Of a stretch of DNA of 64,000 nucleotides, positions 10,988-41,320 are shown in pieces (position 1 is the stretch's first letter; each line of letters starts with the position of its first letter). Below the pieces are notes generated by a model that had not been told where the DNA came from, ran no database searches, and saw nothing but the letters and a program-made list of their open reading frames with translations. A program made the translations under genes and the position numbers. Source of the DNA: Candidatus Xenobia bacterium (GTDB taxonomy: Bacteria; Vulcanimicrobiota; CADAWZ01); NCBI GenBank assembly GCA_045114665.1, contig JBGUKW010000318.1, positions 1,868-65,867 of the forward strand, in the 5' to 3' direction.

Positions 10988-12604
10988 TCATCTGACTATT
11001 TTATACTTTTCAGCATATTCATAAAATTCAAGTCCAAAACGTGGATTTAAACAAATATGAACAACATTTTCCCTATTACTCAAATAAATTCTATCATTTA
11101 AATACTCATGATATAAAAGATTTCTCAATTCAGAAGCATATTTAAATTTTTTTAAATCACAATCAAAGGCAATGCCCATCAAATTATCATCTCTTGTATT
11201 TTCTTTAGAAAAATACTTTTCACTGATAAATCCAGTAGCAGGCAAAGAACCCGCTTTTCCATTTGTCTCTGTTTTTAATCTATTAAACATATAAGCAATA
11301 AAACCAGCCAATTCAGGTCTCATATATATATCTATATTTTTCTTACCTGATTTGTGTTTCTGTTTCACAAGAACTTTTTCTTTAACAGCATTCTCAACAT
11401 CTTTTAAAGAATAAAATTTTTCTAATCCTTCTGTCTCAGTCTCAATTATAGTCCCTCTACACTTATAAATCTTATCTGCCAATCCTTGAGTAGTATCAAC
11501 AAAAGCCGAATATGCCCCAAAAATCTTCCAAGGATAAATATCACTTTCATCAGCAAGAGCATCATAATAATTTTTTGAATTTGTTATTTCGCCCTCCATA
11601 GTTAGATAACCATTCATCATATTTCTGACTTTTTGATTTTTCCAAAGTGATAAATAATTTATATTTTTTTCATTGATAAAATCTTTCATATTTGAATGAT
11701 AAGAATAAGATTTCATCAATGCCTTCATTAGATCTGCATTATTAGTAGTACCATTGTGATATGCAGAAATCGCCAAATCAGGAACATTTTCAAACGAGTT
11801 CATAAGTGTTTTTAAATAAATTACAGAATCTTCTGCATTACACTCTGGAATTATTCTTTCATCAGATATATTCAATTCCTTAGCCATTTTTTTATGGCGA
11901 GTGGCAATATTAAACAAATCTGCCTGAGCAAGAAGTTCTTTTCTTTTTTCTTCACTTTCTGCAATATTAGCTTTATCTTTAATTTCCCTTGAAATATTCC
12001 CCGCATACTCATGAGCAATTTTTACAGCTCCTGCACTCATCTGACCCAATCCTGAACAGGAAGCATATGACATCTTTGATGTATCCCCACTATTTTCCCA
12101 AGTCATAACAGCAAGTGGTATCTCTGCAGGAATATCGTATTTTATCGCATTTTTCCTTATTATGTTCTCATATCTTTTTATAATCTCAACATTTTTATCA
12201 AGTTTATGAGTACCTGAATCATGAAAAATAACATGTCTATATGAAAGAACTTCATAAGTTGCGTCTGTTACTTCGGATTCAGTGTAATTGGGATTTATTG
12301 CTTTAATTGCTTTTCTTATAGGAGCAAAATCCGACATTGTATATTTTGTGAGATAATAGTTATATAATTTTGATTTTGTTTTTTTATATTTACTCAATAT
12401 TTCGCACAATTCATTTGGATAAGTATTTTTTATATAATTCCAATCTTTGTTTGAATAAAAATAGACAAAATCATCATCTATCTTTATATTTTGTTCACTA
12501 CAACCTGACAAAGATATAAATATATAAAAAATAAGTGATATAATAAGAATAAATAAAAAGAACAAAATAGATATAGAAACAATCTTTGTTTTATTAAATA
12601 TCAT
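10988..12604 (-). CDS. Lipoprotein with a lytic transglycosylase (SLT)-like domain
   Basis: 538 aa. Signal peptide plus lipobox (ISLSGC). SLT-like motifs E-N-S...ASCSGLGQMS and AISAYHNG (an AYNAG variant). Confidence 0.5.
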   Translation of the reverse strand: MIFNKTKIVSISILFFLFILIISLIFYIFISLSGCSEQNIKIDDDFVYFYSNKDWNYIKNTYPNELCEILSKYKKTKSKLYNYYLTKYTMSDFAPIRKAIKAINPNYTESEVTDATYEVLSYRHVIFHDSGTHKLDKNVEIIKRYENIIRKNAIKYDIPAEIPLAVMTWENSGDTSKMSYASCSGLGQMSAGAVKIAHEYAGNISREIKDKANIAESEEKRKELLAQADLFNIATRHKKMAKELNISDERIIPECNAEDSVIYLKTLMNSFENVPDLAISAYHNGTTNNADLMKALMKSYSYHSNMKDFINEKNINYLSLWKNQKVRNMMNGYLTMEGEITNSKNYYDALADESDIYPWKIFGAYSAFVDTTQGLADKIYKCRGTIIETETEGLEKFYSLKDVENAVKEKVLVKQKHKSGKKNIDIYMRPELAGFIAYMFNRLKTETNGKAGSLPATGFISEKYFSKENTRDDNLMGIAFDCDLKKFKYASELRNLLYHEYLNDRIYLSNRENVVHICLNPRFGLEFYEYAEKYKIVR

Positions 12605-13224
12605 AAAATAGAAGAAGCATCTCCTTTTCCTTGCCTAATTATCTCAGGATAATCTTTAGTCATGTCAATAATTGTAGAAGGATCAAAATATGCAAGTCCC
12701 CCATCAATAACAAGGTCTAAATTGTTTCCAAATTTGTCATGTATATGTTCAGGATTGCAAACATATTCTTCTTCATCATCTTCATCTTTATCAAAAGAAG
12801 CACTCGTATTTATGATTGGATTTCCAAGTTCTTCTATTAAAGCAGAACATATTGCATTATCTGCAATTCTTATTCCAACTTCACGCCTTTTGTTCATCAT
12901 GATTTTTGGAACAGATTTAGAAGCATTTAAAATAAATGTAAAAGGACCAGGTGTCAATTGTTTCATTATTTTATATACAGCATTTGAAACTTGAGCATAT
13001 TCTGAAACCTGTTTTATATCCTGACATATAAAGCTCAACTGTTTATATTTTGGAAGTTTTTTTATTCTGTAAATTTTTTCTATAGCATCTTTGTTCATCA
13101 AATCACAACCAATGCCATAAATTGTGTCTGTTGGATATGCAATAACGCCACCTCTTGAAAGAATATTAACAGCATATTTTATGTCTTTTTTTAAAGGATA
13201 TTCTGGATCTACTTGAATTATCAT
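12601..13224 (-). CDS. tsaC: L-threonylcarbamoyladenylate synthase (YrdC/Sua5 family)
   Basis: 207 aa. YrdC signature VIAYPTDTIYGIGCD and the KIYRIKKLPKYKQLSFIC region. Confidence 0.85.
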   Translation of the reverse strand: MIIQVDPEYPLKKDIKYAVNILSRGGVIAYPTDTIYGIGCDLMNKDAIEKIYRIKKLPKYKQLSFICQDIKQVSEYAQVSNAVYKIMKQLTPGPFTFILNASKSVPKIMMNKRREVGIRIADNAICSALIEELGNPIINTSASFDKDEDDEEEYVCNPEHIHDKFGNNLDLVIDGGLAYFDPSTIIDMTKDYPEIIRQGKGDASSIL

Positions 13225-13636
13225 AATTTTTAAACGACCATTTCAAAAAAAATATTTAACTTAAATTATTTCTACAAAAAATTTTATAATCTTTCAAAAA
13301 TTTGACTAGTTTGTTAGATTTACCGATAACCACAAAGTTAATAATATTTTGTACTATAATTATGTTAATTTCTTGTTATTACAAATTATAAGTACATATT
13401 GTTAAATTTGTTAACTTCTTGTTAAATCGGCTTGCTACATTTAGAATATTAATCAACTAACACAATAAATTAATTTCTGAATTAATAATAACTAAGATTA
13501 TAAGGGGAACTTTTTATTTTATAACGAAAACAAAAAAATAAGCTCTACGAAAAATTTGATGGAGCTGTGAAAAAATTAAATAGTTTGCTATCAGCTTTCA
13601 CAACCCCAAACTAAAAAAAATAGGAGGAAAAATTAA

Positions 13637-15322
13637 GTGAACAAAATTTTACTGCTCACGGCTATTTCATTTTCTCTGTTTTTATTTATTGCTTCGATAA
13701 ACCCAGTCTATGCAATATCTAAAGAAGAGAAAAAACTATCTGAATTCATAAAAAAATATGAATCAGAGGTTTCAAAACTTGAATTAGAAGTCAATAAAAC
13801 TGAGTGGAATGCCTATATAAGTGGCAAAAAAGAAGATTATGACAAAATGAGCAAAGCAGAAATTGCTTGGAATATATATCATTCTAACAAAGATGTATAT
13901 AAACAGCTCATTGAATGGAGAGATTCAAACAATATAACTTCTCCAGACTTAAAGAGAAAATTATCTATTTTAATAAATAACTATGGTCCATTCCAATTTT
14001 CAGAAGAACTTATAGAAAAAATAAGCCAAAAAGAAGCCGAACTTCAAAGAATGTTCAATTCTTACAGAGGAAAAATAGATGACAAAACAGTTACAGAAAA
14101 AGACATCTATGAAATTTTAGGAAATAGTAAAAATACAAAAGAGAGAGAAAAAGCATGGGAATCTCAAAAATCTGTAGGTTCTGAAGTTTCTAAAAAATTG
14201 ATAGAACTCATAAAATTGAGAAATCAAGGAGCCAAAGAACTTGGATTTTCAAATTTTCATGAGATGTCTGTAACATTTTCAGATGAAGACCCCAAAGAAG
14301 TTGAAAATATATTTAAAAATTTAGCTTCTGATACAGACAAAAAATTTATAGAATACAAAAAAGAACTCGATAAAAAAATTGCTTTAAGAGTAAATAAAAA
14401 AGTTGAAGAATTAATGCCTTGGGATTATTCAAATCCATTTTTCCAAGATGAATCTGAGGGATTTGCACCAGATTTAAGCAAATACTATCAAGGCAGAAAT
14501 ATTCCACTTATTGGCTACAGTTTTTATAATGAAATCGGTCTTCCCCTCGGAAATGTTCTCAAAAACAGTGATCTATATGAAAAAGAGGGAAAATCACAAC
14601 ATGCTTTTTGTTTTGACATAGACAGAAACAATGATGTAAGAATTTTGATGAACATAAGACAAAATGAAGAATCACTATCAACACTTCTTCACGAAAGCGG
14701 ACATGCAGTATATGATCTAAACACAGACAAAAGCCAATCATGGCTATACAGAACACAAGCCCATACACTGACAACAGAAGGCTCTGCAATGTATTTTGAA
14801 AGATTCACAAAAAATCCAAAATGGCTTGAAAAAAATATGGGAATAAAATTGTCAGAAGATGAAGCAAAAAATCTCAAAAAACAGGAAACTCTTTCAGATT
14901 TGATTTTCTGCAGATGGACAATAGTAATGTACAATTTTGAAAAAAGTATGTATGAAAATCCAGACCAAGATTTAAATAAACTTTGGTGGGAATTAGTTGA
15001 AAAATACCAAAATATCAAAAAGCCTGAAGGCAGAAATAAACCTGATTGGGCTTCAAAAATTCACTTAGTAAGTTCTCCAGTATATTATCACAACTACATG
15101 CTTGCAGGTCTTATGGTTGCACAAATGCAACACAAAATAGGAACAAAATTTGCAAAAGATGAAAATTGGGATGAATTTGATGTAACAGGTAATAAAGAAG
15201 TAGGAAGATGGCTAAGAATGAATATATACAAACCTGGTGCAAAATATAATTGGAATCTTCTAATTAAAAAAGCAACAGGCGAAGAGTTGACATCAAAATA
15301 TTTTGTTGAAAGAATAAAGTAA
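13637..15322 (+). CDS. Secreted clan-MA zinc metallopeptidase (M2/M3-like peptidyl-dipeptidase / oligopeptidase)
   Basis: 561 aa. Signal peptide. HESGH (HExxH) with Glu 25 residues downstream (TEGSAM). C-terminal PVYYHNYMLAG resembles M2/M3 motifs. GTG start with a GGAGG SD. Confidence 0.6.
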   Translation: MNKILLLTAISFSLFLFIASINPVYAISKEEKKLSEFIKKYESEVSKLELEVNKTEWNAYISGKKEDYDKMSKAEIAWNIYHSNKDVYKQLIEWRDSNNITSPDLKRKLSILINNYGPFQFSEELIEKISQKEAELQRMFNSYRGKIDDKTVTEKDIYEILGNSKNTKEREKAWESQKSVGSEVSKKLIELIKLRNQGAKELGFSNFHEMSVTFSDEDPKEVENIFKNLASDTDKKFIEYKKELDKKIALRVNKKVEELMPWDYSNPFFQDESEGFAPDLSKYYQGRNIPLIGYSFYNEIGLPLGNVLKNSDLYEKEGKSQHAFCFDIDRNNDVRILMNIRQNEESLSTLLHESGHAVYDLNTDKSQSWLYRTQAHTLTTEGSAMYFERFTKNPKWLEKNMGIKLSEDEAKNLKKQETLSDLIFCRWTIVMYNFEKSMYENPDQDLNKLWWELVEKYQNIKKPEGRNKPDWASKIHLVSSPVYYHNYMLAGLMVAQMQHKIGTKFAKDENWDEFDVTGNKEVGRWLRMNIYKPGAKYNWNLLIKKATGEELTSKYFVERIK

Positions 15323-15442
15323 ATAGTGTTCAAAAAAAATCCAGCCGAGAAAATGTGAAGTGTACCCCAAATTTAGTACATAACTAAAAGTGAGGCAGTT
15401 CAAATGAACTCGACTGGATTTTTTATTTATTTCTCAATTTAC

Positions 15443-18061
15443 TTATACGACACCGTTAAATGCGTCTATATACATTTGTTTTATTTCACTCATAAGTGGA
15501 TAAGATGGGTTTGTTCCTGTGCATTGATCGTCAAAAGCAAGTTCTACCATTTCATCTAATTTTTCATAGAATGCCTGTTCTGTAACTCCCGCATCTTTTA
15601 TTGATTTTGGAAGTTTGAGAGCTTCTTTGAGTTTGTCAACTTCATTCAAGAAAATACTTATCTTTTCATCATCACTTAAATTTTTATCAACAATGTGAAG
15701 TTCATCAACAATCTGTCCAATTTTTTCTTTGACATTTGGATATTTATACTGTGGGAATGCACACTGCTTAAATGGCTTTTCAGTTGCGTTATACTTGATA
15801 ACCTGACTGAAGAGAAGAGCATTTGCTATTCCATGTGGGATATTGAACATAGAACCAAGTTTATGAGCCATTGAGTGACAGACACCAAGGAAAGCATTTG
15901 CAAATGCCATACCAGCCAATGTTGCTGCATAGTGCATTTTTTCTTTTGCTATTGGATCGCCTTTTCCATGTTCGTAAGATCTCGGCAAATACTTAAATAT
16001 CAATTTTATTGCTTCAAGTGCATTTGAATTTGTGAAGTTCGTTGCCATGGATGAAATATATGATTCAACAGCATGAACAAGTGAATCAAAACCACTTGCA
16101 GCACAAAGACCTGGAGGCATTGTATCGACAAAATCTGGATCGACAATTGCCATCGTTGGAGTGAGTGAATATTCAGCAATAGCATATTTTACATGGGTTT
16201 CATCATCTGTTATGATTGCAAAAGGAGTAACTTCTGAACCAGTTCCAGATGTTGTTGGAATAGCTATCAACTGTGATTTCTTTCCAAGCTCAGGAATTGA
16301 ACAAATTCTCTTTCTGATATCCATGAATCTCATAGATATATCTTCAAAATTAGTATCTGGATTTTCATACATCAACCAAACAATCTTCGCTGCGTCGATA
16401 GGAGAACCACCACCAAGAGCAATAATTACATCTGGTTCATAAGGTCTTACGACATTGAGAGCATCTCTAATTGTCGAAAGAGTTGGGTCTGGTCTGACAT
16501 CAAAGAAAATTTGGAAATCAACACCTATTTCATCGAGAACATTTGTTACTTTATATACTGTATTTGAATTAAATAAAAATCTATCAGTTATGATAAACGC
16601 ACGCTTTTTGCCTTTCAATTCTCTCAAAGCGAGATCGACAGAACCTCTCTTGAAATAAATCTTTGGCGGAACTTTGAACCAAAGCATATTTTCTCTCCTC
16701 TCAGCAACAGTCTTGTAATTTAAAAGATGTTTTACTCCAACATTTTCACTTACAGAATTTTCCCCCCATGATCCACAGCCAAGTGTGAGAGAAGGTTCAA
16801 GTCTGAAGTTATAGAGATCACCAAGACCACCATGGGAAGAAGGAGAGTTAATTATAATTCTGCCTGTATGAAGTTTATTGCCGAAAAATGATATTCTATC
16901 TTGTTTGCGAGGATCTGTATAAAGTACAGATGTATGACCAGCTCCTCCAAGCTCAACAAGATTATATGCCATATCTGTAGCATGTTCAAAATCTTCAGCC
17001 TTGTATAAAGCGAGTACAGGAGAAAGTTTTTCATGTGCAAATGGTTCTTCAAGTGCAATATCTGTAACTTCACCTATCAAAATCTTTGTATTTGGAGGAA
17101 CACTTATTCCAGCCATTTCAGCAATCTTACATGCAGGCTGACCTACAACAGCAGGATTTACACTGCCATTTTCTTTTATAACTGTTTTACCAACAACTTC
17201 TTTTTCTTCAGGTGAAAGAATATAAGCACCTCTATATCTAAATTCTTCTCTTACTTCTTCATAAACATCTTTAACAGCAATAACAGACTGTTCAGAAGCA
17301 CAAATCATGCCATTGTCAAATGTCTTTGAAAGAATAATTGAAGATACAGCCATTTTTATATCTGCAGTTTCATCAATTACAGCAGGAGTATTACCTGGAC
17401 CGACTCCTATTGCTGGCTTACCACTTGAATATGCAGATTTAACCATACCTGGACCACCTGTTGCCAAAATAGCGTCGATCATTGGGTGTCTCATAAGCAT
17501 TGCAGAAAGTTCAACAGAAGGCTCATCAATCCAACCGATTATATCTTTTGGAGCTCCTGCTTTTACAGCTGCATCTAAAACAAGTTTAGCAGCAGCTATT
17601 GTTGATTTTTTAGCTCTTGGATGTGGAGAGAAAATAATGGCATTTCTTGTTTTGAGAGCTATCAATGATTTAAAAATAGCTGTCGAAGTTGGATTTGTTG
17701 TTGGAACTATTCCTGCCAAAACTCCCAAAGGTTCAGCAATAATTTTTGTTCCATTGGTTATATCTTCTGAAATAACACCACAAGTTTTTGTATCTTTGTG
17801 TTTGTTATAGATATATTCTGAGGCAAAGTGATTTTTTATTACTTTGTCTTCAACAATTCCCATACCAGTATCTTCAACTGCCATTTTTGCAAGAGGAATA
17901 CGAGCTTTATTTGCAGCAACTGCAGCTGCTTTAAAAATCTTGTCAACTTTTTCCTGAGAAAATGTCGCATATATCTGCTGAGCTTTTTTAACACTTTTTA
18001 TAAGCTCTTCGAGATGTTCAGTAGTTGTAACTACATCAGAAGTTCTTAAAATTTCTTCCAT
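15443..18061 (-). CDS. adhE: Bifunctional acetaldehyde-CoA / alcohol dehydrogenase
   Basis: 872 aa. N-terminal ALDH domain and C-terminal Fe-ADH domain (GGGSPIDAAK, Fe-binding His). Confidence 0.95.
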   Translation of the reverse strand: MEEILRTSDVVTTTEHLEELIKSVKKAQQIYATFSQEKVDKIFKAAAVAANKARIPLAKMAVEDTGMGIVEDKVIKNHFASEYIYNKHKDTKTCGVISEDITNGTKIIAEPLGVLAGIVPTTNPTSTAIFKSLIALKTRNAIIFSPHPRAKKSTIAAAKLVLDAAVKAGAPKDIIGWIDEPSVELSAMLMRHPMIDAILATGGPGMVKSAYSSGKPAIGVGPGNTPAVIDETADIKMAVSSIILSKTFDNGMICASEQSVIAVKDVYEEVREEFRYRGAYILSPEEKEVVGKTVIKENGSVNPAVVGQPACKIAEMAGISVPPNTKILIGEVTDIALEEPFAHEKLSPVLALYKAEDFEHATDMAYNLVELGGAGHTSVLYTDPRKQDRISFFGNKLHTGRIIINSPSSHGGLGDLYNFRLEPSLTLGCGSWGENSVSENVGVKHLLNYKTVAERRENMLWFKVPPKIYFKRGSVDLALRELKGKKRAFIITDRFLFNSNTVYKVTNVLDEIGVDFQIFFDVRPDPTLSTIRDALNVVRPYEPDVIIALGGGSPIDAAKIVWLMYENPDTNFEDISMRFMDIRKRICSIPELGKKSQLIAIPTTSGTGSEVTPFAIITDDETHVKYAIAEYSLTPTMAIVDPDFVDTMPPGLCAASGFDSLVHAVESYISSMATNFTNSNALEAIKLIFKYLPRSYEHGKGDPIAKEKMHYAATLAGMAFANAFLGVCHSMAHKLGSMFNIPHGIANALLFSQVIKYNATEKPFKQCAFPQYKYPNVKEKIGQIVDELHIVDKNLSDDEKISIFLNEVDKLKEALKLPKSIKDAGVTEQAFYEKLDEMVELAFDDQCTGTNPSYPLMSEIKQMYIDAFNGVV

Positions 18062-18088
18062 TAAACTAAATCTCTCCTTTCATATCAT

Positions 18089-19546
18089 TTAATCTAACTT
18101 TAAATCTTCACTTTTATCCAAATATGCGTTTACTGCTTTTGAAGCAGTTTTTATAGAATTTAATGTTGCATTTCCACCAATACAGCCACTAGGACATGAC
18201 ATAACTTCAATTAAATTACCTTCTTCACAAGCTCCATTTTTGGCATATCTTTTGAGGTCTCTTATGCTCATCTTGTTTAATCCATCTACAACAAAAGGCT
18301 TTACCTTATCACTATTTTTGCCAAGTGCAACTCTTACAGATTCTGCAACACCACCAGTAAGAGGATATCCCCTACCCTGTTTTGAAGCAAACTGTTTAAA
18401 ATCTGTCTCTTCGCATTTTGCAACTTGGATATTAAAACCAATAAGCATTGCTCCAAGTTCTTCAAAAGTCAAAACATAATCTATTGTATCATATTCTGTT
18501 GCTTCCTGTCTTTTTGCTACACAAGGGCTTAAAAAAACTGTAACAGCATCTGGATATTTTTCCCTTACCAATTCAGCAGTATAATAAAGTGGAGTATGTG
18601 TATCTGAAACAAAAGGTTTTATCTCGGGCATGTGCTTTTTTACAAGCTCATTGTAAGCAGCACAACATGAAGTCGTCATAAATTTGTCGCCTCTTTCCAT
18701 TCTCTCCATAAAATCTTTTGCTTCATTTTTAGCTGTAACATCTGCACCAACAGCAACTTCCCAAACATCATAAAATCCCATTTTTCTAAGTGCAGTATTT
18801 AACTGCTGAGGAGAACAAGGCAACTGACCAGCAACTGAAGGAGCCATCATAGCAACTACTTTCATTCCACTTTTGATTCTTACCAAAACATCAATAAGTT
18901 GACTTTTTTCATGTACAGCTCCAAATGGACATGCAACAACACATTTTCCACAAGAAATACATTTATCAAAATCAATTTTGGCAAGCCCCGAAGGACCTTT
19001 TGCTATTGCACCAACAGGACATACATTTTCACAAGGAACAATTCTTTTGACAATTGCTTGATATGGACATACCTTCATGCACATGCCACACTGTTTACAT
19101 TTTGACTGGTCTATGACAGATTTTCCATTTATAAATTTAATAGCATTAAATCTGCATGTATTTACACAAGGTCTTGCAACACAACCTTGACACAACTCAG
19201 TAACAAAAACAGCATTTGGAAGACAACCTTGACATGCAGATTCCAAAACAGTCAAAACATCTTTATCAGGTCTTTTTCTATTTACGGCTCTTCTGACAAA
19301 TTCAGCAAGAGTATGTCTTTCATCATCATCCTCAAGAGTTGTTCCAAGCCCAGCCATAACTCTATTTCTCAAAGCAGCACGTTCTTTATATATACAACAA
19401 CGATAAGGCACTTCACAACCTTTAGGTCGCATATCAAAAGGAATAAGTCTTGCATTGTCTTCAAAAGAATCACTCAAAAAAGCCTTTACAATACGAACTA
19501 AAATTTCTTTTTTTAGTCTTACTGTATCATTTGACATATCAGACAT
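18089..19546 (-). CDS. [FeFe]-hydrogenase (HydA-type catalytic subunit with N-terminal ferredoxin-like Fe-S domain), non-canonical H-cluster motif variants
   Basis: 485 aa. Multiple CxxCxxCxxxCP clusters. H-cluster motifs L1 TSCCAAY, L2 SPCVAKRQE, L3 EVMSCPSGCIGG retain all ligand Cys and the Lys. Sits 27 bp upstream of adhE. Confidence 0.8.
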   Translation of the reverse strand: MSDMSNDTVRLKKEILVRIVKAFLSDSFEDNARLIPFDMRPKGCEVPYRCCIYKERAALRNRVMAGLGTTLEDDDERHTLAEFVRRAVNRKRPDKDVLTVLESACQGCLPNAVFVTELCQGCVARPCVNTCRFNAIKFINGKSVIDQSKCKQCGMCMKVCPYQAIVKRIVPCENVCPVGAIAKGPSGLAKIDFDKCISCGKCVVACPFGAVHEKSQLIDVLVRIKSGMKVVAMMAPSVAGQLPCSPQQLNTALRKMGFYDVWEVAVGADVTAKNEAKDFMERMERGDKFMTTSCCAAYNELVKKHMPEIKPFVSDTHTPLYYTAELVREKYPDAVTVFLSPCVAKRQEATEYDTIDYVLTFEELGAMLIGFNIQVAKCEETDFKQFASKQGRGYPLTGGVAESVRVALGKNSDKVKPFVVDGLNKMSIRDLKRYAKNGACEEGNLIEVMSCPSGCIGGNATLNSIKTASKAVNAYLDKSEDLKLD

Positions 19547-19605
19547 AATCTTATATCAAAAACGAAAAAATTTCGTCAAAACGCCTTTCTTTTATTATTT
19601 TTGTT

Positions 19606-19872
19606 CTATGAATTTCCAAGTTTTTTATCTATAGCTGCAAAAACCTTATCTATTGTAGCTTCTTTTATAACCTCATCATCTACCTTGACATAAGGAGCTT
19701 TTGAAAACTTCCAATCAATAGAACAAAGCCCAAGACATGGAACACCTGTAACTTCAACCTTATCACCATATCTTTTAGGAACAGAATCAATAAGTTCCTG
19801 AAGATTGGAAGCTCCCATGACAAAACATGTAGTCCCCAAACATACTTTTACATCTATTTTCTTTTCTTCCAT
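19606..19872 (-). CDS. Thioredoxin-like [2Fe-2S] ferredoxin (NuoE/HndA-like)
   Basis: 88 aa. Cx4C...Cx3C pattern (CLGTTC, CLGLC). Confidence 0.65.
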   Translation of the reverse strand: MEEKKIDVKVCLGTTCFVMGASNLQELIDSVPKRYGDKVEVTGVPCLGLCSIDWKFSKAPYVKVDDEVIKEATIDKVFAAIDKKLGNS

Positions 19873-19904
19873 AGCTGTATCATCCTTTTATAAAAATTAC
19901 AGTA

Positions 19905-21065
19905 TTACATATACTGTATATTAACCTTTTTAAAATATTTTTTTTCGAGAACTTCTGCAATTTTCTTTACTATATTTTTTCTTATAGCAATTTCAACAGG
20001 TAAAGTAGGATCATAATGAGCTTCATTTAATTTAGCTCCTACCATAAAATATATTTCATCACTATCAAGGAAAAAATTTGATAACCTAACTGCAGCATTA
20101 TTTGAATCAGGTATTTTATTTTCAAGATATTCCAATGTTCGAGTAAGGGTCAAAACGCCCTCTGTAACTAAATCTGCTCCTTCCATTTCGAGACAAGAAG
20201 GTAGAGAATCTATACTTATCAATCTGCCAACTGTAATTTTTGCATTTAATTCTCTTGATAACAAATTCGCTGTTGTTCCTCCACAAACAGCTTTTTTGCC
20301 AACAAAATTCTTAAACATATAAGCAAATTCTCTATCACTTGATTGTCTATAAGGAGGACCAGTAAAAACAAGAGATTTTCTTGGTTCTCTAAAATATAAA
20401 ACACAAGCTGATATATCATCAATAGGCTTTCTATTTGGTTCAACTAATTTTGCCTGCTGTACAATATATTTAGCAAGATTATGGCTTGAAATTTCAGGAT
20501 CATTTGCAAGTTTAATTTTCAAAAAATCAATTAATCCACTTCTTCTAAGACCTAATTTTAAAACACCACCGCCAAGTCCCGCTTGAGTAACTCCGTCTGA
20601 GCAAAAAACGAATCTATCACCTAACTGTGCATTCATTTTATAGACTTTCATATGTCTATTTTTAAAATTTACAGAGTCAATTATAGTAAATTCTGGTTTT
20701 AAAACCTCTGTACCTCTAATCCAAACAAAATCTGGATTTCCTTCTTCAACAACAGAAATTTTGCCATCATCAAAACAGTCAATAGCAGAAAAAGTAGAAT
20801 AACTTATATGTCTCACTTGACAGACAGGAAGAGAATTCATAACAATTTCAGCTGCCTTTTTTATTTTGATATTTTTTTCTATAAATCTCAAAAGCATTGT
20901 TGCTGTCATACAAGACAATATATTTGCTTTTATTCCACTTCCCAAACCATCAGACAAAACTGCTATTAATCTTTTATCTTGCGGATAACGCTTAGATACA
21001 AAATAATCCCCAAAGGCATTTTGTTTATATTTTTTTTCTTGTACACAATCTATATCTATAAACAC
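19905..21065 (-). CDS. PP2C-type (SpoIIE/RsbU-like) serine phosphatase
   Basis: 386 aa. PPM motifs VLSDGLGSG and FVFCSDGV. Confidence 0.7.
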   Translation of the reverse strand: MFIDIDCVQEKKYKQNAFGDYFVSKRYPQDKRLIAVLSDGLGSGIKANILSCMTATMLLRFIEKNIKIKKAAEIVMNSLPVCQVRHISYSTFSAIDCFDDGKISVVEEGNPDFVWIRGTEVLKPEFTIIDSVNFKNRHMKVYKMNAQLGDRFVFCSDGVTQAGLGGGVLKLGLRRSGLIDFLKIKLANDPEISSHNLAKYIVQQAKLVEPNRKPIDDISACVLYFREPRKSLVFTGPPYRQSSDREFAYMFKNFVGKKAVCGGTTANLLSRELNAKITVGRLISIDSLPSCLEMEGADLVTEGVLTLTRTLEYLENKIPDSNNAAVRLSNFFLDSDEIYFMVGAKLNEAHYDPTLPVEIAIRKNIVKKIAEVLEKKYFKKVNIQYM

Positions 21066-21074
21066 TATGCCCTC

Positions 21075-22766
21075 CTATTTATCATAATCATCTGCAATAG
21101 AACTTAATAGAGTCTCTGTTTCAACCATATGTTCACCAAGTAAGCAAGCTATTTCTTGAACAATAGAAATATTTTTTGAAATAACTTCATTTGCTCTTCG
21201 TGCTATTTTTTCTCTATTCATCTGTGTTTTAGTTACATCTGTTATTATAGCACCAGCAACTTTACCAGGTTCAAGTACAAAAGCTATAATATCATATATT
21301 TTATCATCTAAACAATAATGCTCTTTGTGAATTTCATGACCAAGTTTAAAAACTTCCTTAAATATCTCAACAATATCTACAATACGGTCTAAAGAAGCTC
21401 CTGCAATTCCATCTGCTTCAAAAATATCAGCCATATCACCTGTAAAAGCTCTAATAAAAGATGTATTTGCTTCCAATATTCTCAAAAAAGAATCAACAAT
21501 AACAACAGATGAAGGCATACATCTTATCATTATCGAAGCCTTTTGCATTGCCAATTTTCTCATATATGATACACACATAGAAGGCTCTGCAATACCTGCA
21601 ATAAGTGCTAACGCAAGTTCCCTACAAGTGTTATATCCACATCCACCACAATTTAATTCATCTTCTGGATTAGACTTTCCTAATTTCTTCAAAGCCTCAT
21701 TTATTTCTTCTAATGAATACTCTTTTAAATCTTCTTTTTTAGGTGCATAATCCATATGGACTACACTTAAAGGCTCTTTTGGAATAGAATCTCTCAACTT
21801 TGTACGAGTCAAAATATCTGAAATAAGCATTATCTCTGATTTTTCTGTGCTTATACAAGGACCACCTATGCAACCACCTTCACATGCAAGAACTTCTGCA
21901 AATGTAACTTTAGTGCAATCATTTGGCTTAAATCCATCAAGTGCCTTTTTAAAAGACTTTAAAGAGGCAAATTCTGTCAATATACAATTTTTAACACCTA
22001 TCTGTTTTAATGTACGATTCATTCCACCATCAATAGGATAGAAATTTCCCTCATTTGCATTATGTGGCAAAAATTTTATCTCTTCTAAATTTATTTCTTT
22101 ATGTATATTAATAAAAGATTTCTCAAACATTAATTTTAATTCTTCAAAAGTTAAGGAAACATCTATTAAATTTTTATTGGTATCTGATTCATTTTTCTTT
22201 CCTATGCATGGACCAATGAAAATAACAGAAATATCTTCGCCATACATTTCTTTTAACATTTTAGCATGTGTCAATGCAGGAGAAGCTATTGGAACTATAT
22301 TTTTAACAAATTCAGGGCGGTATTTTCTTATATATTCTACAACTACTGGACAAGCACTCGATATAAAAAATCCATTTTCAGCTTTGTTCAATATTTCAGC
22401 TGTTTTAATAGATACTTCTTGAGCTCCTAAAGCCGTTTCACTAACTCCAGTAAAACCAAGTTTTTTAAGAGATGAAATAATTTCAGTTTCTGTACAATCA
22501 AAAGCTCCTCTCCAACTTGGTGCCAATGAAGCATAAACTTTTTTACTGGATTCCAAAAGTTCTGTCGCTATTCCGACATCTGATCTTACTCTTTTGGCAT
22601 TACAAGGACATACAATAACACAATTACCACAAGAAATACATTTATCTTGCATAACAAAAGCATGACCTTTTTCAACTTTTATGGCTTTTACTGGACATTC
22701 TCTAATACATTTATAACAATCTTGACACTCATTTGTCAATGTATATACAGGTTGAGAAATAGGCAT
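21075..22766 (-). CDS. Sensory-type [FeFe]-hydrogenase (HydS/HfsB-like): 2x[4Fe-4S] ferredoxin domain, modified H-cluster domain, C-terminal Cys-rich plus PAS domain
   Basis: 563 aa. CxxCxxCxxxCP x2. L1 ISSACPVV, where the proton-transfer Cys position is Ala. L2 GPCIGKK. L3 EVLACEGGCIGGP. CGGCGYNTC followed by a PAS-like C-terminus. Confidence 0.75.
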   Translation of the reverse strand: MPISQPVYTLTNECQDCYKCIRECPVKAIKVEKGHAFVMQDKCISCGNCVIVCPCNAKRVRSDVGIATELLESSKKVYASLAPSWRGAFDCTETEIISSLKKLGFTGVSETALGAQEVSIKTAEILNKAENGFFISSACPVVVEYIRKYRPEFVKNIVPIASPALTHAKMLKEMYGEDISVIFIGPCIGKKNESDTNKNLIDVSLTFEELKLMFEKSFINIHKEINLEEIKFLPHNANEGNFYPIDGGMNRTLKQIGVKNCILTEFASLKSFKKALDGFKPNDCTKVTFAEVLACEGGCIGGPCISTEKSEIMLISDILTRTKLRDSIPKEPLSVVHMDYAPKKEDLKEYSLEEINEALKKLGKSNPEDELNCGGCGYNTCRELALALIAGIAEPSMCVSYMRKLAMQKASIMIRCMPSSVVIVDSFLRILEANTSFIRAFTGDMADIFEADGIAGASLDRIVDIVEIFKEVFKLGHEIHKEHYCLDDKIYDIIAFVLEPGKVAGAIITDVTKTQMNREKIARRANEVISKNISIVQEIACLLGEHMVETETLLSSIADDYDK

Positions 22767-22781
22767 TTATTAGAACCTCTT

Positions 22782-23030
22782 TTAATTATTTTTTAAATGT
22801 TCAGATATTAATTGTTTTATTTTTTCAAAATCAATATTATCATGTTTTTTTTCATTTATAAAAACATGGGGACCATCAGAACATTGATTTGAACAACGAA
22901 CTCCAGCAAGTTCTATTTTATCTTGCAAACCATTTTCTTCTATATATTTTTCAATAAGTTCAAGATTATCATTATTTCCTCTTGCAAAACAAGAACTCCC
23001 CATACATATTGTCAAATTTATTTTATCCAT
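22782..23030 (-). CDS. Thioredoxin-like [2Fe-2S] ferredoxin
   Basis: 82 aa. Cx4C (CMGSSC) and Cx3C (CSNQC). Confidence 0.6.
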   Translation of the reverse strand: MDKINLTICMGSSCFARGNNDNLELIEKYIEENGLQDKIELAGVRCSNQCSDGPHVFINEKKHDNIDFEKIKQLISEHLKNN

Positions 23031-23095
23031 AATAAAATCTTTCTTTTACTTAAAATTTTTTATATAAAATGTGATTTTTTTCTCAATTTCTTTAC

Positions 23096-23123
23096 ATTAT
23101 AACATATAAATTTATAAAGTCAA
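23096..23123 (-). promoter_or_regulatory. Candidate sigma70-type promoter for the ferredoxin-hydS-PP2C-hydA-adhE operon
   Basis: On the minus strand, TTGACT - 16 nt - TATAAT, about 60 nt upstream of the first ferredoxin start. Confidence 0.4.
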
Positions 23124-23140
23124 TATTTTTCAAAAAAAAT

Positions 23141-23175
23141 AAACTCTCTATTTAAATAGAGAGTTTATTTTTTTT
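23141..23175. terminator. Bidirectional rho-independent terminator (downstream of lepB; insulates the hydrogenase operon)
   Basis: Perfect hairpin AAACTCTCTA-TTTAAA-TAGAGAGTTT flanked by an A-run and a T-run. Confidence 0.7.
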
Positions 23176-23179
23176 GAAA

Positions 23180-23785
23180 TTATAAAACTTTACATCTATT
23201 GAATGGGAAAATTATTATAACAGCTTTGCCTACTAAATTCTTTCTGGGTAGAAATCCCCAAACATGACTGTCTGCACTGTTATTTCTATTATCTCCCATC
23301 ACAAAATAAGAATCTTTCGGAACAGTTTGTCTATCCATATCATAAAGTATAGGTTCTAAAATATATGGTTCATCTTGAGCCACGTCATTTACGAATAGAA
23401 CTCCACTTTTTATTTCAACAGTATCGCCTCCGACTGCTACAATCCTTTTTATAAAATCTTTGCCTTCTGCCTGTGCTTCCGCTGGTGGGTGAAAAACCAC
23501 AATATCATGGCGTGCTGGATTATAAAAAGAATAAACAAATTTATTTACTATTATAAAATCATTTATTTTTAAAGTCGGAACCATTGAAGAAGATGGAATA
23601 TAGAAAGTCCTAATTACAAAAGTTATAATTATTAAAGCTGTAACTCCAGCAAGAATAACTGAATCAATATTTTCTATTATAGATTTCTTTTTTTCTTCTT
23701 CTATCTTTAGATGTTTGTTAAAACGAAAAACAAGACTAACTATTCCCAAGATAATTACCGCTATAACTAAATATATTGGATTCAT
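23180..23785 (-). CDS. lepB: Signal peptidase I
   Basis: 201 aa. N-terminal TM. S-box SSSMVPTL, KR box, GDNRNNSADSH. Confidence 0.9.
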   Translation of the reverse strand: MNPIYLVIAVIILGIVSLVFRFNKHLKIEEEKKKSIIENIDSVILAGVTALIIITFVIRTFYIPSSSMVPTLKINDFIIVNKFVYSFYNPARHDIVVFHPPAEAQAEGKDFIKRIVAVGGDTVEIKSGVLFVNDVAQDEPYILEPILYDMDRQTVPKDSYFVMGDNRNNSADSHVWGFLPRKNLVGKAVIIIFPFNRCKVL

Positions 23786-23802
23786 GGTTTATCGATCTTA
23801 TT

Positions 23803-24153
23803 TTATTTTGTTACTTTTCTCTCTTTTACACGAGCATTTTTACCAACTTTATCTCTGAGGTAATAGAGTTTGGCTTTTCTTACATCACCATATCTTGTTA
23901 CTGTAAGAGAATGGAGCATTGGAGAATGATATAAAAATGTTTTTTCTACGCCAACGCCATGAGAGATTTTTCTGAGAACAAAAGATTCTCTTAAACCTGT
24001 ATTTTGTCTTGCAATACAGATTCCCTCAAATGCTTGATATCTCTCTTTTCCACCTTCTACAACTTTGAGTTGTACTTTTACTGTATCTCCAGGTCTAAAA
24101 TCCTGAAATTGATTTTTCATTTGTTCTTTTGCAAGTTCATCTATAATAGTCAT
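23803..24153 (-). CDS. rplS: 50S ribosomal protein L19
   Basis: 116 aa, typical L19 sequence. Confidence 0.95.
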   Translation of the reverse strand: MTIIDELAKEQMKNQFQDFRPGDTVKVQLKVVEGGKERYQAFEGICIARQNTGLRESFVLRKISHGVGVEKTFLYHSPMLHSLTVTRYGDVRKAKLYYLRDKVGKNARVKERKVTK

Positions 24154-24266
24154 TGTTTTTCTCCCTTGATGTGTTTCTTTTTTTTATTTGCTGTTTACGA
24201 AAATTTTATGGCAATTTTTATTTTTTCTATTTTTGAAAATTAATACCGTTTTCTTCTCTTTATTTT

Positions 24267-24950
24267 TTATTCTTTTTTATATTTTATGAGAAGTTCAGGG
24301 CGTTTTTTCAAAGTATTTGTCGTTTTTTGAAGTTCTCGCCATTGTTTTATTTTCTCATGATTTCCTGAAAGGAGGACTTCAGGAACTTTTAGTCCCATAA
24401 ATTCAACAGGTCTTGTATATTGAGGATAATCCAATCTGTTGTCGGTAAATGATTCCTCTAAGGCTGATTGAGAATCTATGACTTTTGGAATAAGTCTTAT
24501 CGTTGAATCTGCAATAACCATTGCTGGGATTTCTCCACCAGTTAATATATAATCTCCTATGGAAATCTCTCCATCACATGCCAGCTCAATAAAACGCTCA
24601 TCCACTCCTTCATAATGTGCACATACAAGAATCATTCCCTCTAATTTGGAAAATTCTCTACACATTTCTTGTGTCAAAACTTTTCCTTGGGGAGATGTCA
24701 AATATACAGGAGCATTGGGATTTTGCTTTTTTATTGATTCAACAGCTTTATACAATATTGGAGCAGTCATGACCATTCCAGAACCTCCACCATAAGGAGA
24801 ATCGTCAACACTTTTATGTCTATCTGTAGCAAATTCTCTTAAATTATGTATGTGAAGTTCTACTAATTTAGCTTTAACAGCTCTGTCAATAATACTGTAT
24901 GAAAGAGGTGCAAACATCTCTGGAAACACAGTCAATATGTCAATTCTCAA
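24267..24950 (-). CDS. trmD: tRNA (guanine37-N1)-methyltransferase
   Basis: 227 aa. Typical TrmD N-terminus (MRIDILTVFPEMF..) and SPOUT knot. Confidence 0.95.
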   Translation of the reverse strand: MRIDILTVFPEMFAPLSYSIIDRAVKAKLVELHIHNLREFATDRHKSVDDSPYGGGSGMVMTAPILYKAVESIKKQNPNAPVYLTSPQGKVLTQEMCREFSKLEGMILVCAHYEGVDERFIELACDGEISIGDYILTGGEIPAMVIADSTIRLIPKVIDSQSALEESFTDNRLDYPQYTRPVEFMGLKVPEVLLSGNHEKIKQWRELQKTTNTLKKRPELLIKYKKE

Positions 24951-39894: not shown

Positions 39895-41172
39895 CTATAT
39901 ATCTGGATCAAAATCAAAGTTCTGACCACCTATAATTATATTGTCCCCTGCTTTTGCACCTGCATTTATAAGTGCATCTTCCAATCCAATACCTTTAAAT
40001 TTTTTCTGCAGATATGAAACAACATCTGGATTATATAAATCCATCATAGCCATGAGTTTTTCTATTTTATATCCCTTAACTATAAATGAATCGTTTTCTC
40101 TCTCCACAGTAAAATCTGTAATCATTTTTTCAGGGCGTATTGGTATTATTGTTTCAGGAACATCTGGAGCTTCTTGTGCATATTGGAATATTTTTTTTGA
40201 AAGTTCTTCTATTCCTTCCCCTGTATCGCAAGATGTAAAAAGAACATCTATTCCTTTTTCTTTAAAAATATTCTCTATTTTTTTCAAAATTTTCCTATCT
40301 TGGACTAAATCAATTTTATTTAAAACAACTATTTCAGGTTTATTTTCCATTGACTCATCATATAAATCTAATTCATTTCTTATTGATTCATAAGTTTTGA
40401 TAGGATTTTCTTGTGTTTTCTCATCAGATATGTCAATCATGTGGATCAACATTCTTGTTCTTTCAATATGTTTTAAAAAGAGAAGTCCAAGTCCTTGACC
40501 TTTATGAGCCCCTTCAACAAGCCCTGGAACATCTGCCAAAACTACTTCAACATCTCCATCTTGCATTATACCCAATACAGGATTTAATGTTGTAAAGGGA
40601 TATGAAGCTATTTTAGGATTTGCAGATGTTATTTTAGATAAAAGAGATGACTTTCCAGCATTTGGAAAACCTACTATTCCAGCATCAGCCAATATTTTCA
40701 ATACAAGCCTAACCCATTTTTCATCACCTGGTTCTCCTTTTTCAGAAAAACGTGGTACATGCCTAGTAGGTGTTGAAAATTTTGCGTTACCTCTTCCACC
40801 TCTTCCGCCATGGGCAACTATAAATTGTTGTCCATGCTCTGTTAAATCACATATTGGATCACCTGTTTCACAGTCATATACAAGAGTACCTGGTGGAACA
40901 TATAAAATGATGTCTTTTCCATTTCTCCCATTTTTTCTTGAACCTTGACCATGAACTCCAGGAGAGGCTTTGAAATGTGCTTTATATTTAAATTGTAAAA
41001 GATCGTTTTCTCCTGCATCTGTTTCAAGTATTACATTTCCACCGCTTCCGCCATCTCCGCCATCTGGACCACCGTTAGCGACATACTTCTCTCTTCTGAA
41101 ACTAGTGCAGCCGTTTCCACCATCTCCGCCTTTTACAAAAATTTTCGCTTCGTCTATAAAACGTTCTCTCAT
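39895..41172 (-). CDS. obg: GTPase Obg/CgtA
   Basis: Gly-rich Obg fold (GGDGGNGC, GGPDGGDGGSGG). G domain GFPNAGKSS, DVPGLVEGA, NKID. C-terminal OCT domain. Confidence 0.95.
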   Translation of the reverse strand: MRERFIDEAKIFVKGGDGGNGCTSFRREKYVANGGPDGGDGGSGGNVILETDAGENDLLQFKYKAHFKASPGVHGQGSRKNGRNGKDIILYVPPGTLVYDCETGDPICDLTEHGQQFIVAHGGRGGRGNAKFSTPTRHVPRFSEKGEPGDEKWVRLVLKILADAGIVGFPNAGKSSLLSKITSANPKIASYPFTTLNPVLGIMQDGDVEVVLADVPGLVEGAHKGQGLGLLFLKHIERTRMLIHMIDISDEKTQENPIKTYESIRNELDLYDESMENKPEIVVLNKIDLVQDRKILKKIENIFKEKGIDVLFTSCDTGEGIEELSKKIFQYAQEAPDVPETIIPIRPEKMITDFTVERENDSFIVKGYKIEKLMAMMDLYNPDVVSYLQKKFKGIGLEDALINAGAKAGDNIIIGGQNFDFDPDI

Positions 41173-41293: not shown

Positions 41294-41320
41294 ATAATTT
41301 TTATTTTATGGGGAAATTTA

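Follow-up and report, generated by a model that had tools for sequence, protein, structure and literature searches.

Six consecutive genes on the minus strand of the window (the whole 64-kb stretch of DNA that was analysed) encode two thioredoxin-like ferredoxins (Fdx1 and Fdx2), a putative sensory [FeFe] hydrogenase (HydS), a PP2C phosphatase, a monomeric [FeFe] hydrogenase (HydB) and a bifunctional AdhE, and probably constitute an operon that is the counterpart of both the Ruminococcus albus 7 cluster and the Thermoanaerobacterium hfsABCD and that works in the steps proposed below. The host is most likely a rumen bacterium of the Gastranaerophilales (Melainabacteria, a gut lineage with cyanobacterial kin) and not a Firmicute. 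The physical clustering of sensor, phosphatase, hydrogenase and adhE is already known from R. albus and is not new; what is new here is a Rex-type box on the promoter of the entire sensor-hydrogenase-adhE operon, a candidate element through which expression of all six genes may respond to NADH.

Predicted operon structure and boundaries

The six ORFs (15443–23030) follow the order Fdx1, HydS, PP2C, Fdx2, HydB and AdhE, with intergenic gaps, 5′ to 3′, of 15, 9, 32, 59 and 27 nt, and look like a single transcription unit of ~7.7 kb, with one predicted sigma-70-type promoter (23123–23096) and one predicted terminator (15424–15332) bracketing all six genes. The sequence-only reading of this DNA had described a same-strand string with gaps of 9–59 bp at the same coordinates, and that description holds, as do its gene identities, each of which is backed by a profile match.

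23180–23785: lepB (PF10502 and TIGR02227)
23128–23179, minus strand: lepB intrinsic terminator, a perfect 24-bp hairpin between A and U runs
23096–23123, minus strand: sigma-70-type promoter, TTGACT-16-(TG)TATAAT, 11/12 matches
23069–23086, minus strand: candidate Rex-type operator TTGAGAAAAAAATCACAT, beginning 9 nt past the -10 and overlapping the expected transcription start
22782–23030, minus strand: Fdx1, thioredoxin-like [2Fe-2S] ferredoxin, 82 aa; PF01257
21075–22766, minus strand: HydS, putative sensory [FeFe] hydrogenase, group C / M2f, 563 aa
19905–21065, minus strand: HfsC-type PP2C (PPM, SpoIIE/RsbU-like) Ser/Thr phosphatase, 386 aa, GTG start; PF07228 SpoIIE
19606–19872, minus strand: Fdx2, second thioredoxin-like [2Fe-2S] ferredoxin, right ahead of the catalytic hydrogenase, 88 aa; PF01257
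18089–19546, minus strand: HydB, monomeric [FeFe] hydrogenase of the TIGR04105 / group B type, 485 aa
15443–18061, minus strand: AdhE, bifunctional acetaldehyde-CoA/alcohol dehydrogenase, 872 aa; NF010378
15332–15424, minus strand: operon-ending intrinsic terminator, a long hairpin AAAAAAUCCAGUCGAG...CUCGGCUGGAUUUUUUUU and a U-run after adhE

The sigma70-type promoter that had been proposed 5′ of the first gene was the top promoter-like site in a scan of 13000–24500. Promoter-like sites as a class were not enriched in this interval (62 found, 54.8 expected), and the weight given to the operon promoter stems from its conservation, with both the -35 and the -10 kept amid diverged flanks in the related loci L008, L009 and L010. 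Upstream, the terminator hairpin expected between lepB and the operon is present (-26.9 kcal/mol; z -9.7 versus shuffles) and is predicted to insulate the operon from upstream transcription. At the other end, the hairpin after adhE (-38.9 kcal/mol; z -8.8) has shorter forms at the same position in L008 and L009.

Nearly all Gastranaerophilales have the five-gene hydrogenase module, and hydB is followed by a gene other than adhE (dxr or adk, for example) in 77 of the order's 80 loci at species level, a distribution that would suit an adhE brought here by rearrangement, driven by its own promoter in the 3′ part of hydB and adjacent without regulatory meaning. The same could be said of L095, where adhE lies 141 nt after hydB and has its own promoter and Rex box, and of the weak promoter-like hexamers within hydB at 18679–18483, which leave room for an extra internal start there. 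This explanation is nonetheless quite improbable. The adhE gene begins 27 nt past the hydB stop, and this gap contains a ribosome-binding site (AAAGGAGAG) only, with no space for a promoter and, at the sequence level, none of the internal terminators that would have separated adhE from the module. No Rex-type box with three or fewer mismatches occurs between 15420 and 21325, and none lies before adhE, whereas the standalone adhE of relatives usually has one 60–200 nt upstream. Further, at least four gene orders and two phyla show linkage of adhE to the module, often together with rex, and in other lineages with the same arrangement, represented by three metagenome contigs, the hydB–adhE junction is 0 nt, a 4-nt ATGA overlap or an 8-nt overlap, as would be expected of two translationally coupled genes. 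The six-gene order is also identical in a relative whose HydS is 69% identical and whose flanking genes are wholly different (L004–L006, L010).

The putative sensor module

Fdx1, kin to the C-terminal domain of NuoE/HoxE, matches PF01257 (E 1.4e-9, 38 bits; cut-off 24.8) and has four cysteines at positions 9, 14, 46 and 50. HydS matches PF02906 (155 bits) and PF04060, with two CxxCxxCxxxCP motifs at the N-terminus (residues 14–25 and 43–54), an H-domain in which all four cluster cysteines are kept (C139, C187, C295 and C299) and a C-terminal 4-Cys domain (PF04060, residues 373–398). The residues A138, G185 and L293 are ‘sensory’ substitutions at the positions of C299, M353 and M497 of CpI (comparison with PMC10055695). 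The features of a sensory-type [FeFe] hydrogenase that had been ascribed to this protein are present, while the C-terminal PAS domain ascribed to it is weakly supported: PAS_9 is matched over the full model at 16.9 bits (E 0.008), below the gathering score of 27, some homologues have precomputed PAS_9 or PAS_8 matches, and a low-confidence AlphaFold model (mean pLDDT 59) places a PAS-like beta-beta-alpha-alpha-alpha-beta-beta-beta topology at residues 420–510. The HydS proteins of Thermotoga maritima (group C, M2f) and Thermoanaerobacter mathranii (group D, M2e) have in common with the window protein the N-terminal 2x[4Fe-4S] domain, the C-terminal 4-Cys cluster domain and the replacement of the three CpI residues (Ala, Gly and a non-Met residue in the window; Ala, Gly and Ser in T. 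maritima), but a PAS domain, by which groups C and D are told apart, is weakly detectable in the window HydS.

The phosphatase gene follows hydS after 9 nt, and its product ends in a family-specific alpha/beta domain (residues 228–386). Neither a kinase nor a candidate PP2C substrate is encoded near the operon, and the STAS or anti-sigma partner proposed by the sequence-only reading is not in the 64-kb window. The signalling mechanism was still called unknown in 2026 (PMC13277313). Judging from homologues only, HydS and Fdx1 would bind H2 at a sensing-tuned H-cluster, the C-terminal [4Fe-4S]/PAS/helical region of HydS would pass the signal to its tightly coupled partner, the PP2C, and the phosphatase would dephosphorylate some target that feeds back on the H2/ethanol pathway.

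Genetic evidence comes from Thermoanaerobacterium saccharolyticum hfsABCD (Shaw 2009; Eminoglu 2017, PMC5707799), which, compared through its published descriptions, has the same core of HfsB (HydS-like, PAS), HfsC (PP2C) and HfsD (ferredoxin-linked hydrogenase) in one operon and a genetic tie to adhE expression and ethanol yield. It differs in that adhE (Tsac_0416) occupies a separate locus from hfs and in that HfsA is described as hydrogenase-like, not as a thioredoxin-like ferredoxin. In strains deleted for hfsB, both adhE expression and ethanol go up, provided that hfsC and hfsD are intact (PMC5707799), which fits a model of HydS restraining the phosphatase.

The hfs operon was, in turn, defined as the main H2-evolving hydrogenase of T. 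saccharolyticum, and HfsABC has been suggested in 2026 to be possibly functional as a hydrogenase without HfsD (PMC13277313; PMC5707799). HydS might be no sensor but a catalytic or electron-transfer subunit of a multi-subunit Hfs-type hydrogenase (Fdx1-HydS-Fdx2-HydB), with the PP2C acting post-translationally on enzyme activity and not on gene expression; the retention of the four H-cluster cysteines and the measurable turnover of the T. maritima HydS (PMC10055695) are compatible with such a role. This is unlikely, however, given that all three hallmark sensory substitutions are present, that the 4-Cys domain and PAS-like region are typical for groups C and D, and that deletion of hfsB raised hydrogenase activity and did not lower it (PMC5707799). 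That HydS is obligately paired with a signalling phosphatase, their genes lying 9 nt apart or overlapping, likewise favours signalling.

The catalytic genes

Fdx2 matches PF01257 (E 1.4e-7, 31.9 bits; cut-off 24.8), has cysteines at positions 11, 16, 46 and 50 and shows 60–88% identity across 80 relatives. HydB scores 525 bits against TIGR04105, ‘monomeric [FeFe] hydrogenase’ (cut-off 450), possesses canonical H-cluster motifs (TSCC, 292–295; SPC, 340–342; EVMSCPSGCIGG, 447–458) and keeps the proton-transfer Cys. Both hydrogenase calls passed the profile searches, and the earlier ‘HydA’ label stands as to a catalytic-type [FeFe] hydrogenase; the enzyme is group B-like and of the monomeric TIGR04105 type, not a clostridial group A HydA. 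By sequence, HydB is the counterpart of HfsD and of R. albus HydA2, and is presumably ferredoxin-dependent and H2-evolving. Welsh et al. 2025 (PMC12578642) report that most fermentative H2 production in the gut is due to enzymes of the group B class; HydB resembles the group B enzymes of gut bacteria in its TIGR04105 score and H-cluster motifs, but lies inside a sensor-phosphatase operon with its own 2Fe-2S ferredoxin ahead. Subgroup names differ between sources, and Greening et al. call the R. albus homologue ‘group A1’ (PMC6776011). AdhE scores 1375 bits against NF010378 (cut-off 951) and has both Aldedh and Fe-ADH domains.

Based on family membership, HydB with Fdx2 would discharge reduced ferredoxin as H2, and AdhE would re-oxidise two NADH per acetyl-CoA converted to ethanol, so that the operon would co-express both enzymes belonging to what has been described for R. 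albus as a fermentative ‘high-H2 mode’.

Comparison with the R. albus 7 cluster

The sequence-only reading had presented the fusion of sensor, phosphatase, hydrogenase and adhE into one unit as a contrast with R. albus. That contrast fails, as plasmid pRUMAL01 carries these genes on one strand in the order rex-adhE-kinase-fdx-fdx-hydS-PP2C-hydA2 (NC_014824; RUMAL_RS17350–17385; Zheng et al. 2014), published as a co-transcribed eight-gene cluster with a 111-fold drop in co-culture (Greening et al. 2019, PMC6776011) and with co-regulation by H2 (PMC6776011; PMC10838669). The homology of the window genes to the HydS and hfs systems, as the earlier reading claimed, does hold. The two clusters share AdhE (59% identity), two thioredoxin-like ferredoxins (35% for Fdx1), a HydS ending in an Fe-S/PAS region (32% over 97% of its length), a two-domain SpoIIE-type PP2C (27%), a TIGR04105-type monomeric hydrogenase (36%; HydA2 scores 577 bits), the single strand with tiny gaps and the presumed co-expression of a ferredoxin-only hydrogenase with AdhE at high H2. 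They differ in that the R. albus cluster is plasmid-borne, belongs to the Bacillota (the window most likely to the Melainabacteria), has adhE first instead of last and its ferredoxins in tandem instead of split, and encodes Rex and a small kinase, neither of which is in the window; the module proteins have 27–36% identity.

A candidate Rex-type operator

Rex control of adhE is an established pattern in Firmicutes. Among 45 loci with Gastranaerophilales-type adhE promoters, 19 have TTGTGAAATAAATCAC(G/A)A, with at most two mismatches, at 60–200 nt ahead of adhE, and ~5 other matches occur in 621 kb. The window box occupies the place where the standalone adhE promoters of related genomes have TTGTGAAATAAATCACGA, aligns in register with TTGAGAAAAAAATCACAA (L008) and TCGTGATAACAATCACAA (L010), and lies at the same offset from the -10 as its counterparts in L008, L009 and L010; an A-rich spacer variant in L145, TTGTGAAAAAAATCACAA, is two positions off it. 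The box is degenerate, with three mismatches to the consensus (11/14 positions), and alone is not significant, as the AT-rich window contains nine sites with three mismatches. It is absent at most hfs promoters without adhE. As in Rex-controlled adhE promoters, the -10 in the window is directly followed by an inverted repeat of the TTGTGAA-N4-TTCACAA type, but here the box is at the promoter of a six-gene unit and not directly ahead of adhE, and the rex that follows adhE in relatives is missing from the 64-kb window.

This missing gene, the degeneracy of the site and a core, TG(A/T)GA-N6-TCACA, that suits the CRP/FNR consensus (TGTGA-N6-TCACA) equally well as the Rex consensus lend some weight to a CRP/FNR-type site, or a mere conserved leader, in place of a Rex operator. 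Such an identity is rather unlikely, since the same motif family in relatives precedes adhE genes directly followed by rex (L093, L095, L102, L109, L159 and others; identified by PF06971 and PF02629), in line with the usual Rex control of adhE in Firmicutes. As a Rex-type operator over the transcription start, the box would, from its conserved position and motif, repress the unit at low NADH/NAD+, and NADH build-up, for example when H2 accumulates and NADH is no longer disposable as H2, would release it.

Implications for fermentation

The Rex-type box, the only cis-element found, indicates a promoter that responds to NADH/NAD+, and the ‘direct H2-dependent control’ proposed from the sequence therefore goes no further than the homologues suggest. 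The proposed switch between ethanol and H2 as electron sinks is likewise not supported, as co-transcription of a ferredoxin-dependent hydrogenase with AdhE implies co-expression. If NADH-responsive control is true, H2 evolution and ethanol formation would be co-expressed rather than switched between.

Organization of the hydrogenase-adhE unit

Six minus-strand ORFs occupy the positions proposed in the sequence-only reading, with intergenic gaps of 15, 9, 32, 59 and 27 nt, and each gene identity proposed there is backed by Pfam and NCBIfam profile matches:

22782-23030 (-), Fdx1, thioredoxin-like [2Fe-2S] ferredoxin (PF01257), four cysteines as Cx4C...Cx3C
21075-22766 (-), HydS, 563 aa, [FeFe]-hydrogenase-like (PF02906, 155 bits; PF04060, E 1.6e-10)
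19905-21065 (-), PP2C, 386 aa, SpoIIE-type phosphatase (PF07228) with a family-specific C-terminal domain, directly downstream of hydS
19606-19872 (-), Fdx2, thioredoxin-like [2Fe-2S] ferredoxin (PF01257), four cysteines as Cx4C...Cx3C
18089-19546 (-), HydB, 485 aa, 'monomeric [FeFe] hydrogenase' (TIGR04105, 525 bits, cut-off 450)
15443-18061 (-), AdhE (NF010378 equivalog, 1375 bits, cut-off 951; PF00171, PF00465, PF25137)

The promoter proposed for the unit, TTGACT-16-(TG)TATAAT at 23123..23096, had the best score in the scanned region, and the hairpin terminator of the upstream lepB is strong (-26.9 kcal/mol, z -9.7 against shuffled sequences). A second strong hairpin terminator lies 3' of adhE (-38.9 kcal/mol, z -8.8). 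A terminator between hydB and adhE would have spoken for separate transcripts; the 27-nt gap, ATGATATGAAAGGAGAGATTTAGTTTA, has none and contains solely a ribosome-binding site, adhE lies within the same-strand string, and a hairpin in the 3' end of hydB lacks a U-run on the coding strand. Folding of the operon 5' UTR and internal gaps was no better than that of shuffled sequence, and an Rfam search of the window returned no leader RNA, its sole RNA gene being a tRNA-Leu(CAG) at 30191-30273 (-). Within the fdx2-hydB gap (19547-19605, -), GACGAAA...UUUCGU forms a weak hairpin with UUUUU 3' of it, a possible attenuator that folds no better than shuffled sequence (z +0.36).

HydB retains the motifs TSCC, SPC and EVMSCPSGCIGG, and the proton-transfer cysteine is thus present. 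Profile searches resolve AdhE into an N-terminal aldehyde dehydrogenase and a C-terminal Fe-ADH domain.

HydS as a putative group C sensor

All four cysteine ligands of the H-cluster are present in HydS (C139, C187, C295 and C299, within SSACP, GPC and ACEGGC) and are unchanged in 12 homologues. Sensory enzymes are altered at three second-sphere positions, C299, M353 and M497 of the reference catalytic hydrogenase CpI, which are Ala, Gly and Ser in Thermotoga maritima HydS (PMC10055695); based on an alignment to the group A enzyme 8a6t, the corresponding residues here are A138, G185 and L293. The HydS class is recognized by two N-terminal [4Fe-4S] motifs together with an atypical C-terminal 4-Cys cluster domain, and a PAS domain following that cluster separates group C from group D (PMC13104023). 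HydS has two CxxCxxCxxxCP motifs (residues 14-25 and 43-54) and a PF04060 4-Cys domain at residues 373-398 (C373, C376, C381 and C398). The approximately 165 residues beyond it match PAS_9 over the full model, though weakly (E 0.008, 16.9 bits, cut-off 27), an AlphaFold model has a PAS-like topology at low confidence (pLDDT 59), and some homologues carry precomputed PAS_9 or PAS_8 matches. Based on the cysteine domains, the weak PAS_9 match, the predicted topology and the PAS matches of homologues, the architecture probably corresponds to group C (M2f) and not to group D (M2e).

In an alignment of homologues the best-conserved stretch of the protein is its last ~30 residues, EVISKNISIVQEIACLLGEHMVETETLLSSIA. 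The C-terminal helices (residues 527-557; window 21096-21188, -) are near-invariant across homologues 59-69% identical overall, and their conservation, higher even than around the H-cluster, points to a possible protein-protein interface.

Host lineage and conservation of the module

A scan for HydS loci that took a single genome from each species yielded 80 loci. The rumen bins RUG13580 and RUG13696 encode HydS proteins 98% identical to that of the window and one further bin a protein at 69%, while most other loci (HydS identity 58-62%) are labelled Gastranaerophilales, Melainabacteria, Vampirovibrio or 'Cyanobacteria bacterium' and a few Clostridium or Muribaculaceae. The organism names on PP2C and AdhE homologues agree with the Gastranaerophilales assignment and, given the names attached to homologues of all three proteins, the host is most likely a rumen Gastranaerophilales bacterium and not a Firmicute.

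Essentially all 80 loci possess Fdx1-HydS-PP2C-Fdx2, with HydB as the next gene in 72. An insert of 0.6-2.2 kb precedes hydB in 15 of the 80 and likewise in L007, a relative outside that scan; because of these inserts in 16 relatives (L007, L011, L014, L025, L028-L031, L053, L054, L056, L058, L066, L072, L080 and L085), the module is seen to be split often, and exactly between fdx2 and hydB. The L007 insert encodes a 279-aa HHH_3 protein. The gene 3' of hydB is mostly dxr, adk or an unrelated gene, and is adhE in only three of the 80 loci (L008, L009 and L010). The full six-gene order of the window recurs in L010 and in the related loci L004-L006, amid entirely different flanking genes. Upstream of the L010 operon is a 1.4-kb gene-free stretch without a convincing ORF.

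Surroundings of the operon

At window ~41000-48000 the genes change strand and the GC skew reverses, with minus-strand genes and negative skew to the left, plus-strand genes and positive skew to the right, and a cumulative skew minimum near 46-48 kb, the pattern of a replication origin. DnaA-box matches around the switch are at chance level and dnaA is absent there. The source organism appears to be flagellated, judging from its predicted genes, and flagella are reported in some Gastranaerophilales:

47729-60000 (+), flagellar cluster: flgB/C, fliE, fliF, fliG, fliH, fliI, fliJ and a hook-length gene
6906-8315 (-), separate FHIPEP (FlhA-like) ORF

Four further large minus-strand ORFs have no Pfam match in the contig annotations: 2421-6140 (1239 aa), 9442-10842 (466 aa), 10988-12604 (538 aa) and 28434-29825 (463 aa).

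Recurrent linkage of adhE and rex to the module

Homologues of the window AdhE at 74-78% identity are numerous, and two of them bear an organism name, Gastranaerophilales in both cases, on which grounds adhE was probably present in the lineage already and was relocated within it. Recent acquisition of adhE from a foreign source is disfavoured by the same homologues. Three look-ups of AdhE-homologue contexts returned adhE-rex (L093), adhE alone (L094) and Fdx-HydS-PP2C-Fdx-HydB-adhE-rex (L095). On the opposite strand of L095 (10656-13572), 1.4 kb past adhE-rex, lies a partner-switching set composed of a 754-aa SpoIIE + HATPase_c_2 fusion and two STAS-domain proteins; no comparable set was found in the window.

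A metagenome scan with the window AdhE as query returned 80 loci, in 17 of which module genes lie within 8 kb of adhE. The order adhE-rex-fdx-hydS-PP2C-fdx-hydB occurs in L102, L109, L159 and L120, as well as on partial contigs, the window's own order in L116, L121 and L131, and Firmicute-like versions in L164 and L168, the latter with a kinase of the Ruminococcus albus type. The hydB stop and adhE start abut or overlap in all three loci with the window's order (TAAATG, ATGA and an 8-nt overlap), which is strong evidence that the window-type hydB-adhE arrangement is operonic. It appears that adhE and rex were joined to the module repeatedly during evolution, in different gene orders, and this repeated joining lends comparative support to a functional link between the sensor and AdhE/Rex.

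A candidate Rex-type operator

When the leaders of the window operon, L008, L009 and L010 were aligned, only the -35, the -10 and one further block were conserved and the remainder had diverged. Its sequence in the window lineage is TTGAGAAAAAAATCACA(T/A); that of L010 is TCGTGATAACAATCACAA. Scored against the Rex motif TTGTGAA-N4-TTCACAA, as refined on the adhE promoters of relatives, it constitutes a candidate Rex box at window 23069-23086 with 11 of 14 consensus positions, in the same position in L008, L009 and L010. Taken alone, the window box is not statistically significant and no better than chance; what gives it weight is where it lies, that it is conserved and that it belongs to a motif family.

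That family is evident at the standalone adhE genes of relatives, where the promoter is followed directly by TAGTGAATTAAATCACAA, TTGTGAAATAAATCACGA or TCGTGAATTAAATCACTA. The motif (≤2 mismatches) is present 60-200 nt 5' of adhE in 19 of 45 metagenome loci, with only about five other matches in 621 kb, and a rex gene (PF06971 + PF02629) comes next after many of these adhE genes. Two positions separate the window box from variants with A-rich spacers, such as TTGTGAAAAAAATCACAA in L145. Such a box is missing from most hfs promoters that have no adhE: among 76 upstream regions of this kind, box scores are distributed as background, with the exception of L076. A search of the R. albus locus for a Rex box gave nothing convincing.

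No Rex-type box lies directly in front of adhE in the window, and from the comparison with relatives we infer that in the window lineage adhE may have lost its own promoter, with a Rex-type element now situated at the promoter shared by all six genes. Since the window has no rex gene (tblastn with the R. albus and Gastranaerophilales Rex proteins), we infer Rex control of the unit rather than read it from the locus itself.

The 98%-identity relative L008 has a second Rex-type box, TTGTGAATTTTTTCTCAA (2172-2189; 13 of 14 positions), ~108 nt 5' of Fdx1. It lies upstream of the -35, while the other box follows the -10, and it is missing from the window because the lepB terminator sits there. Elsewhere in the window, a perfect 7-bp inverted repeat just past murB (44194-44213), GTGTGAAAGTTTTTTCACAC (TGTGA-N8-TCACA), has a spacing unlike that of a Rex box.

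Comparison with Ruminococcus albus

The closest described system is on plasmid pRUMAL01 of R. albus 7. In its sequence, which was read directly, one strand carries rex, adhE, the gene of a small kinase, those of two 2Fe-2S ferredoxins, hydS, the gene of a SpoIIE-family PP2C and hydA2, in this order and with minimal gaps. Identities between the window and R. albus proteins are 32% for HydS, 27% for PP2C (full length), 36% for HydB/HydA2 and 59% for AdhE, with HydA2 and HydB belonging to the same NCBIfam family (TIGR04105; 577 and 525 bits, respectively). The hydS and PP2C genes are 9 nt apart in the window, whereas they overlap in R. albus and L007. The R. albus cluster includes rex and a Ser/Thr kinase ('phosphotransferase'), both of which are absent from the window, as they are from the Thermoanaerobacterium hfs operon; a tblastn search of the window with the R. 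albus kinase returned no match.

The putative eight-gene cluster of R. albus drops 111-fold when an H2 consumer is co-cultured, and Greening et al. (PMC6776011) propose that H2 is sensed through the group C enzyme, which is co-transcribed, together with its phosphatase. The ferredoxin-only hydrogenase and AdhE of R. albus are jointly induced at high H2 (PMC6776011, PMC10838669). The sequence-only reading had contrasted physical fusion in the window with mere co-regulation in R. albus; its central claim of novelty fails because the pRUMAL01 cluster already joins hydS, PP2C, hydA2 and adhE. The window locus is of an already-known cluster type, yet in a new lineage, with a different gene order and without cluster-encoded rex or kinase. 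The present analysis adds that the module is conserved across the lineage, that its linkage to adhE and rex recurs, that the junctions are tight or overlap, and that the promoter has a candidate Rex operator.

Proposed function and implications

In gut and rumen, H2 partial pressure sets the output of fermenters, either acetate and H2 for methanogens or ethanol. HydB could release reduced ferredoxin from pyruvate oxidation as H2 at any H2 level, while NADH would not be disposable as H2 through HydB. By analogy, the window operon would hard-wire the hydrogenase-AdhE pairing known from high-H2 induction in R. albus, with HydS and PP2C presumably acting as an H2-responsive signalling pair and a Rex-type box tying expression to NADH/NAD+. 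In Thermoanaerobacterium, deletion of the hydS-like hfsB increases both adhE expression and ethanol, but only in strains with intact hfsC (PP2C) and hfsD (hydrogenase) (PMC5707799), a requirement that fits HydS restraining the phosphatase.

The STAS or anti-sigma partner that the sequence-only reading had suggested looking for was not found within the window, and annotation of three further 20-kb stretches returned only housekeeping and flagellar genes, with neither a kinase nor a candidate target of PP2C near the operon. It is conceivable, though improbable, that H2 and NADH sensing converge on a single Gastranaerophilales promoter, with a sensor that operates without a cluster kinase and a PP2C that acts on Rex, AdhE or HydB. 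Under such convergence, the family-specific, Rossmann-like C-terminal domain of PP2C could bind a nucleotide, e.g., NAD(H), H2 and NADH/NAD+ would jointly set the expression or activity of hydrogenase and AdhE, the repeated independent adhE(-rex) fusions would mark a conserved sensor-to-Rex/AdhE link, and the target of HydS-type sensors could at last be identified.

The window locus introduces no new principle. With the gut Melainabacteria, a second lineage at phylum level has the HydS-PP2C-hydrogenase module near-universally, and the window operon, a compact form with neither kinase nor rex in the cluster, is suited to probing the target of the phosphatase.
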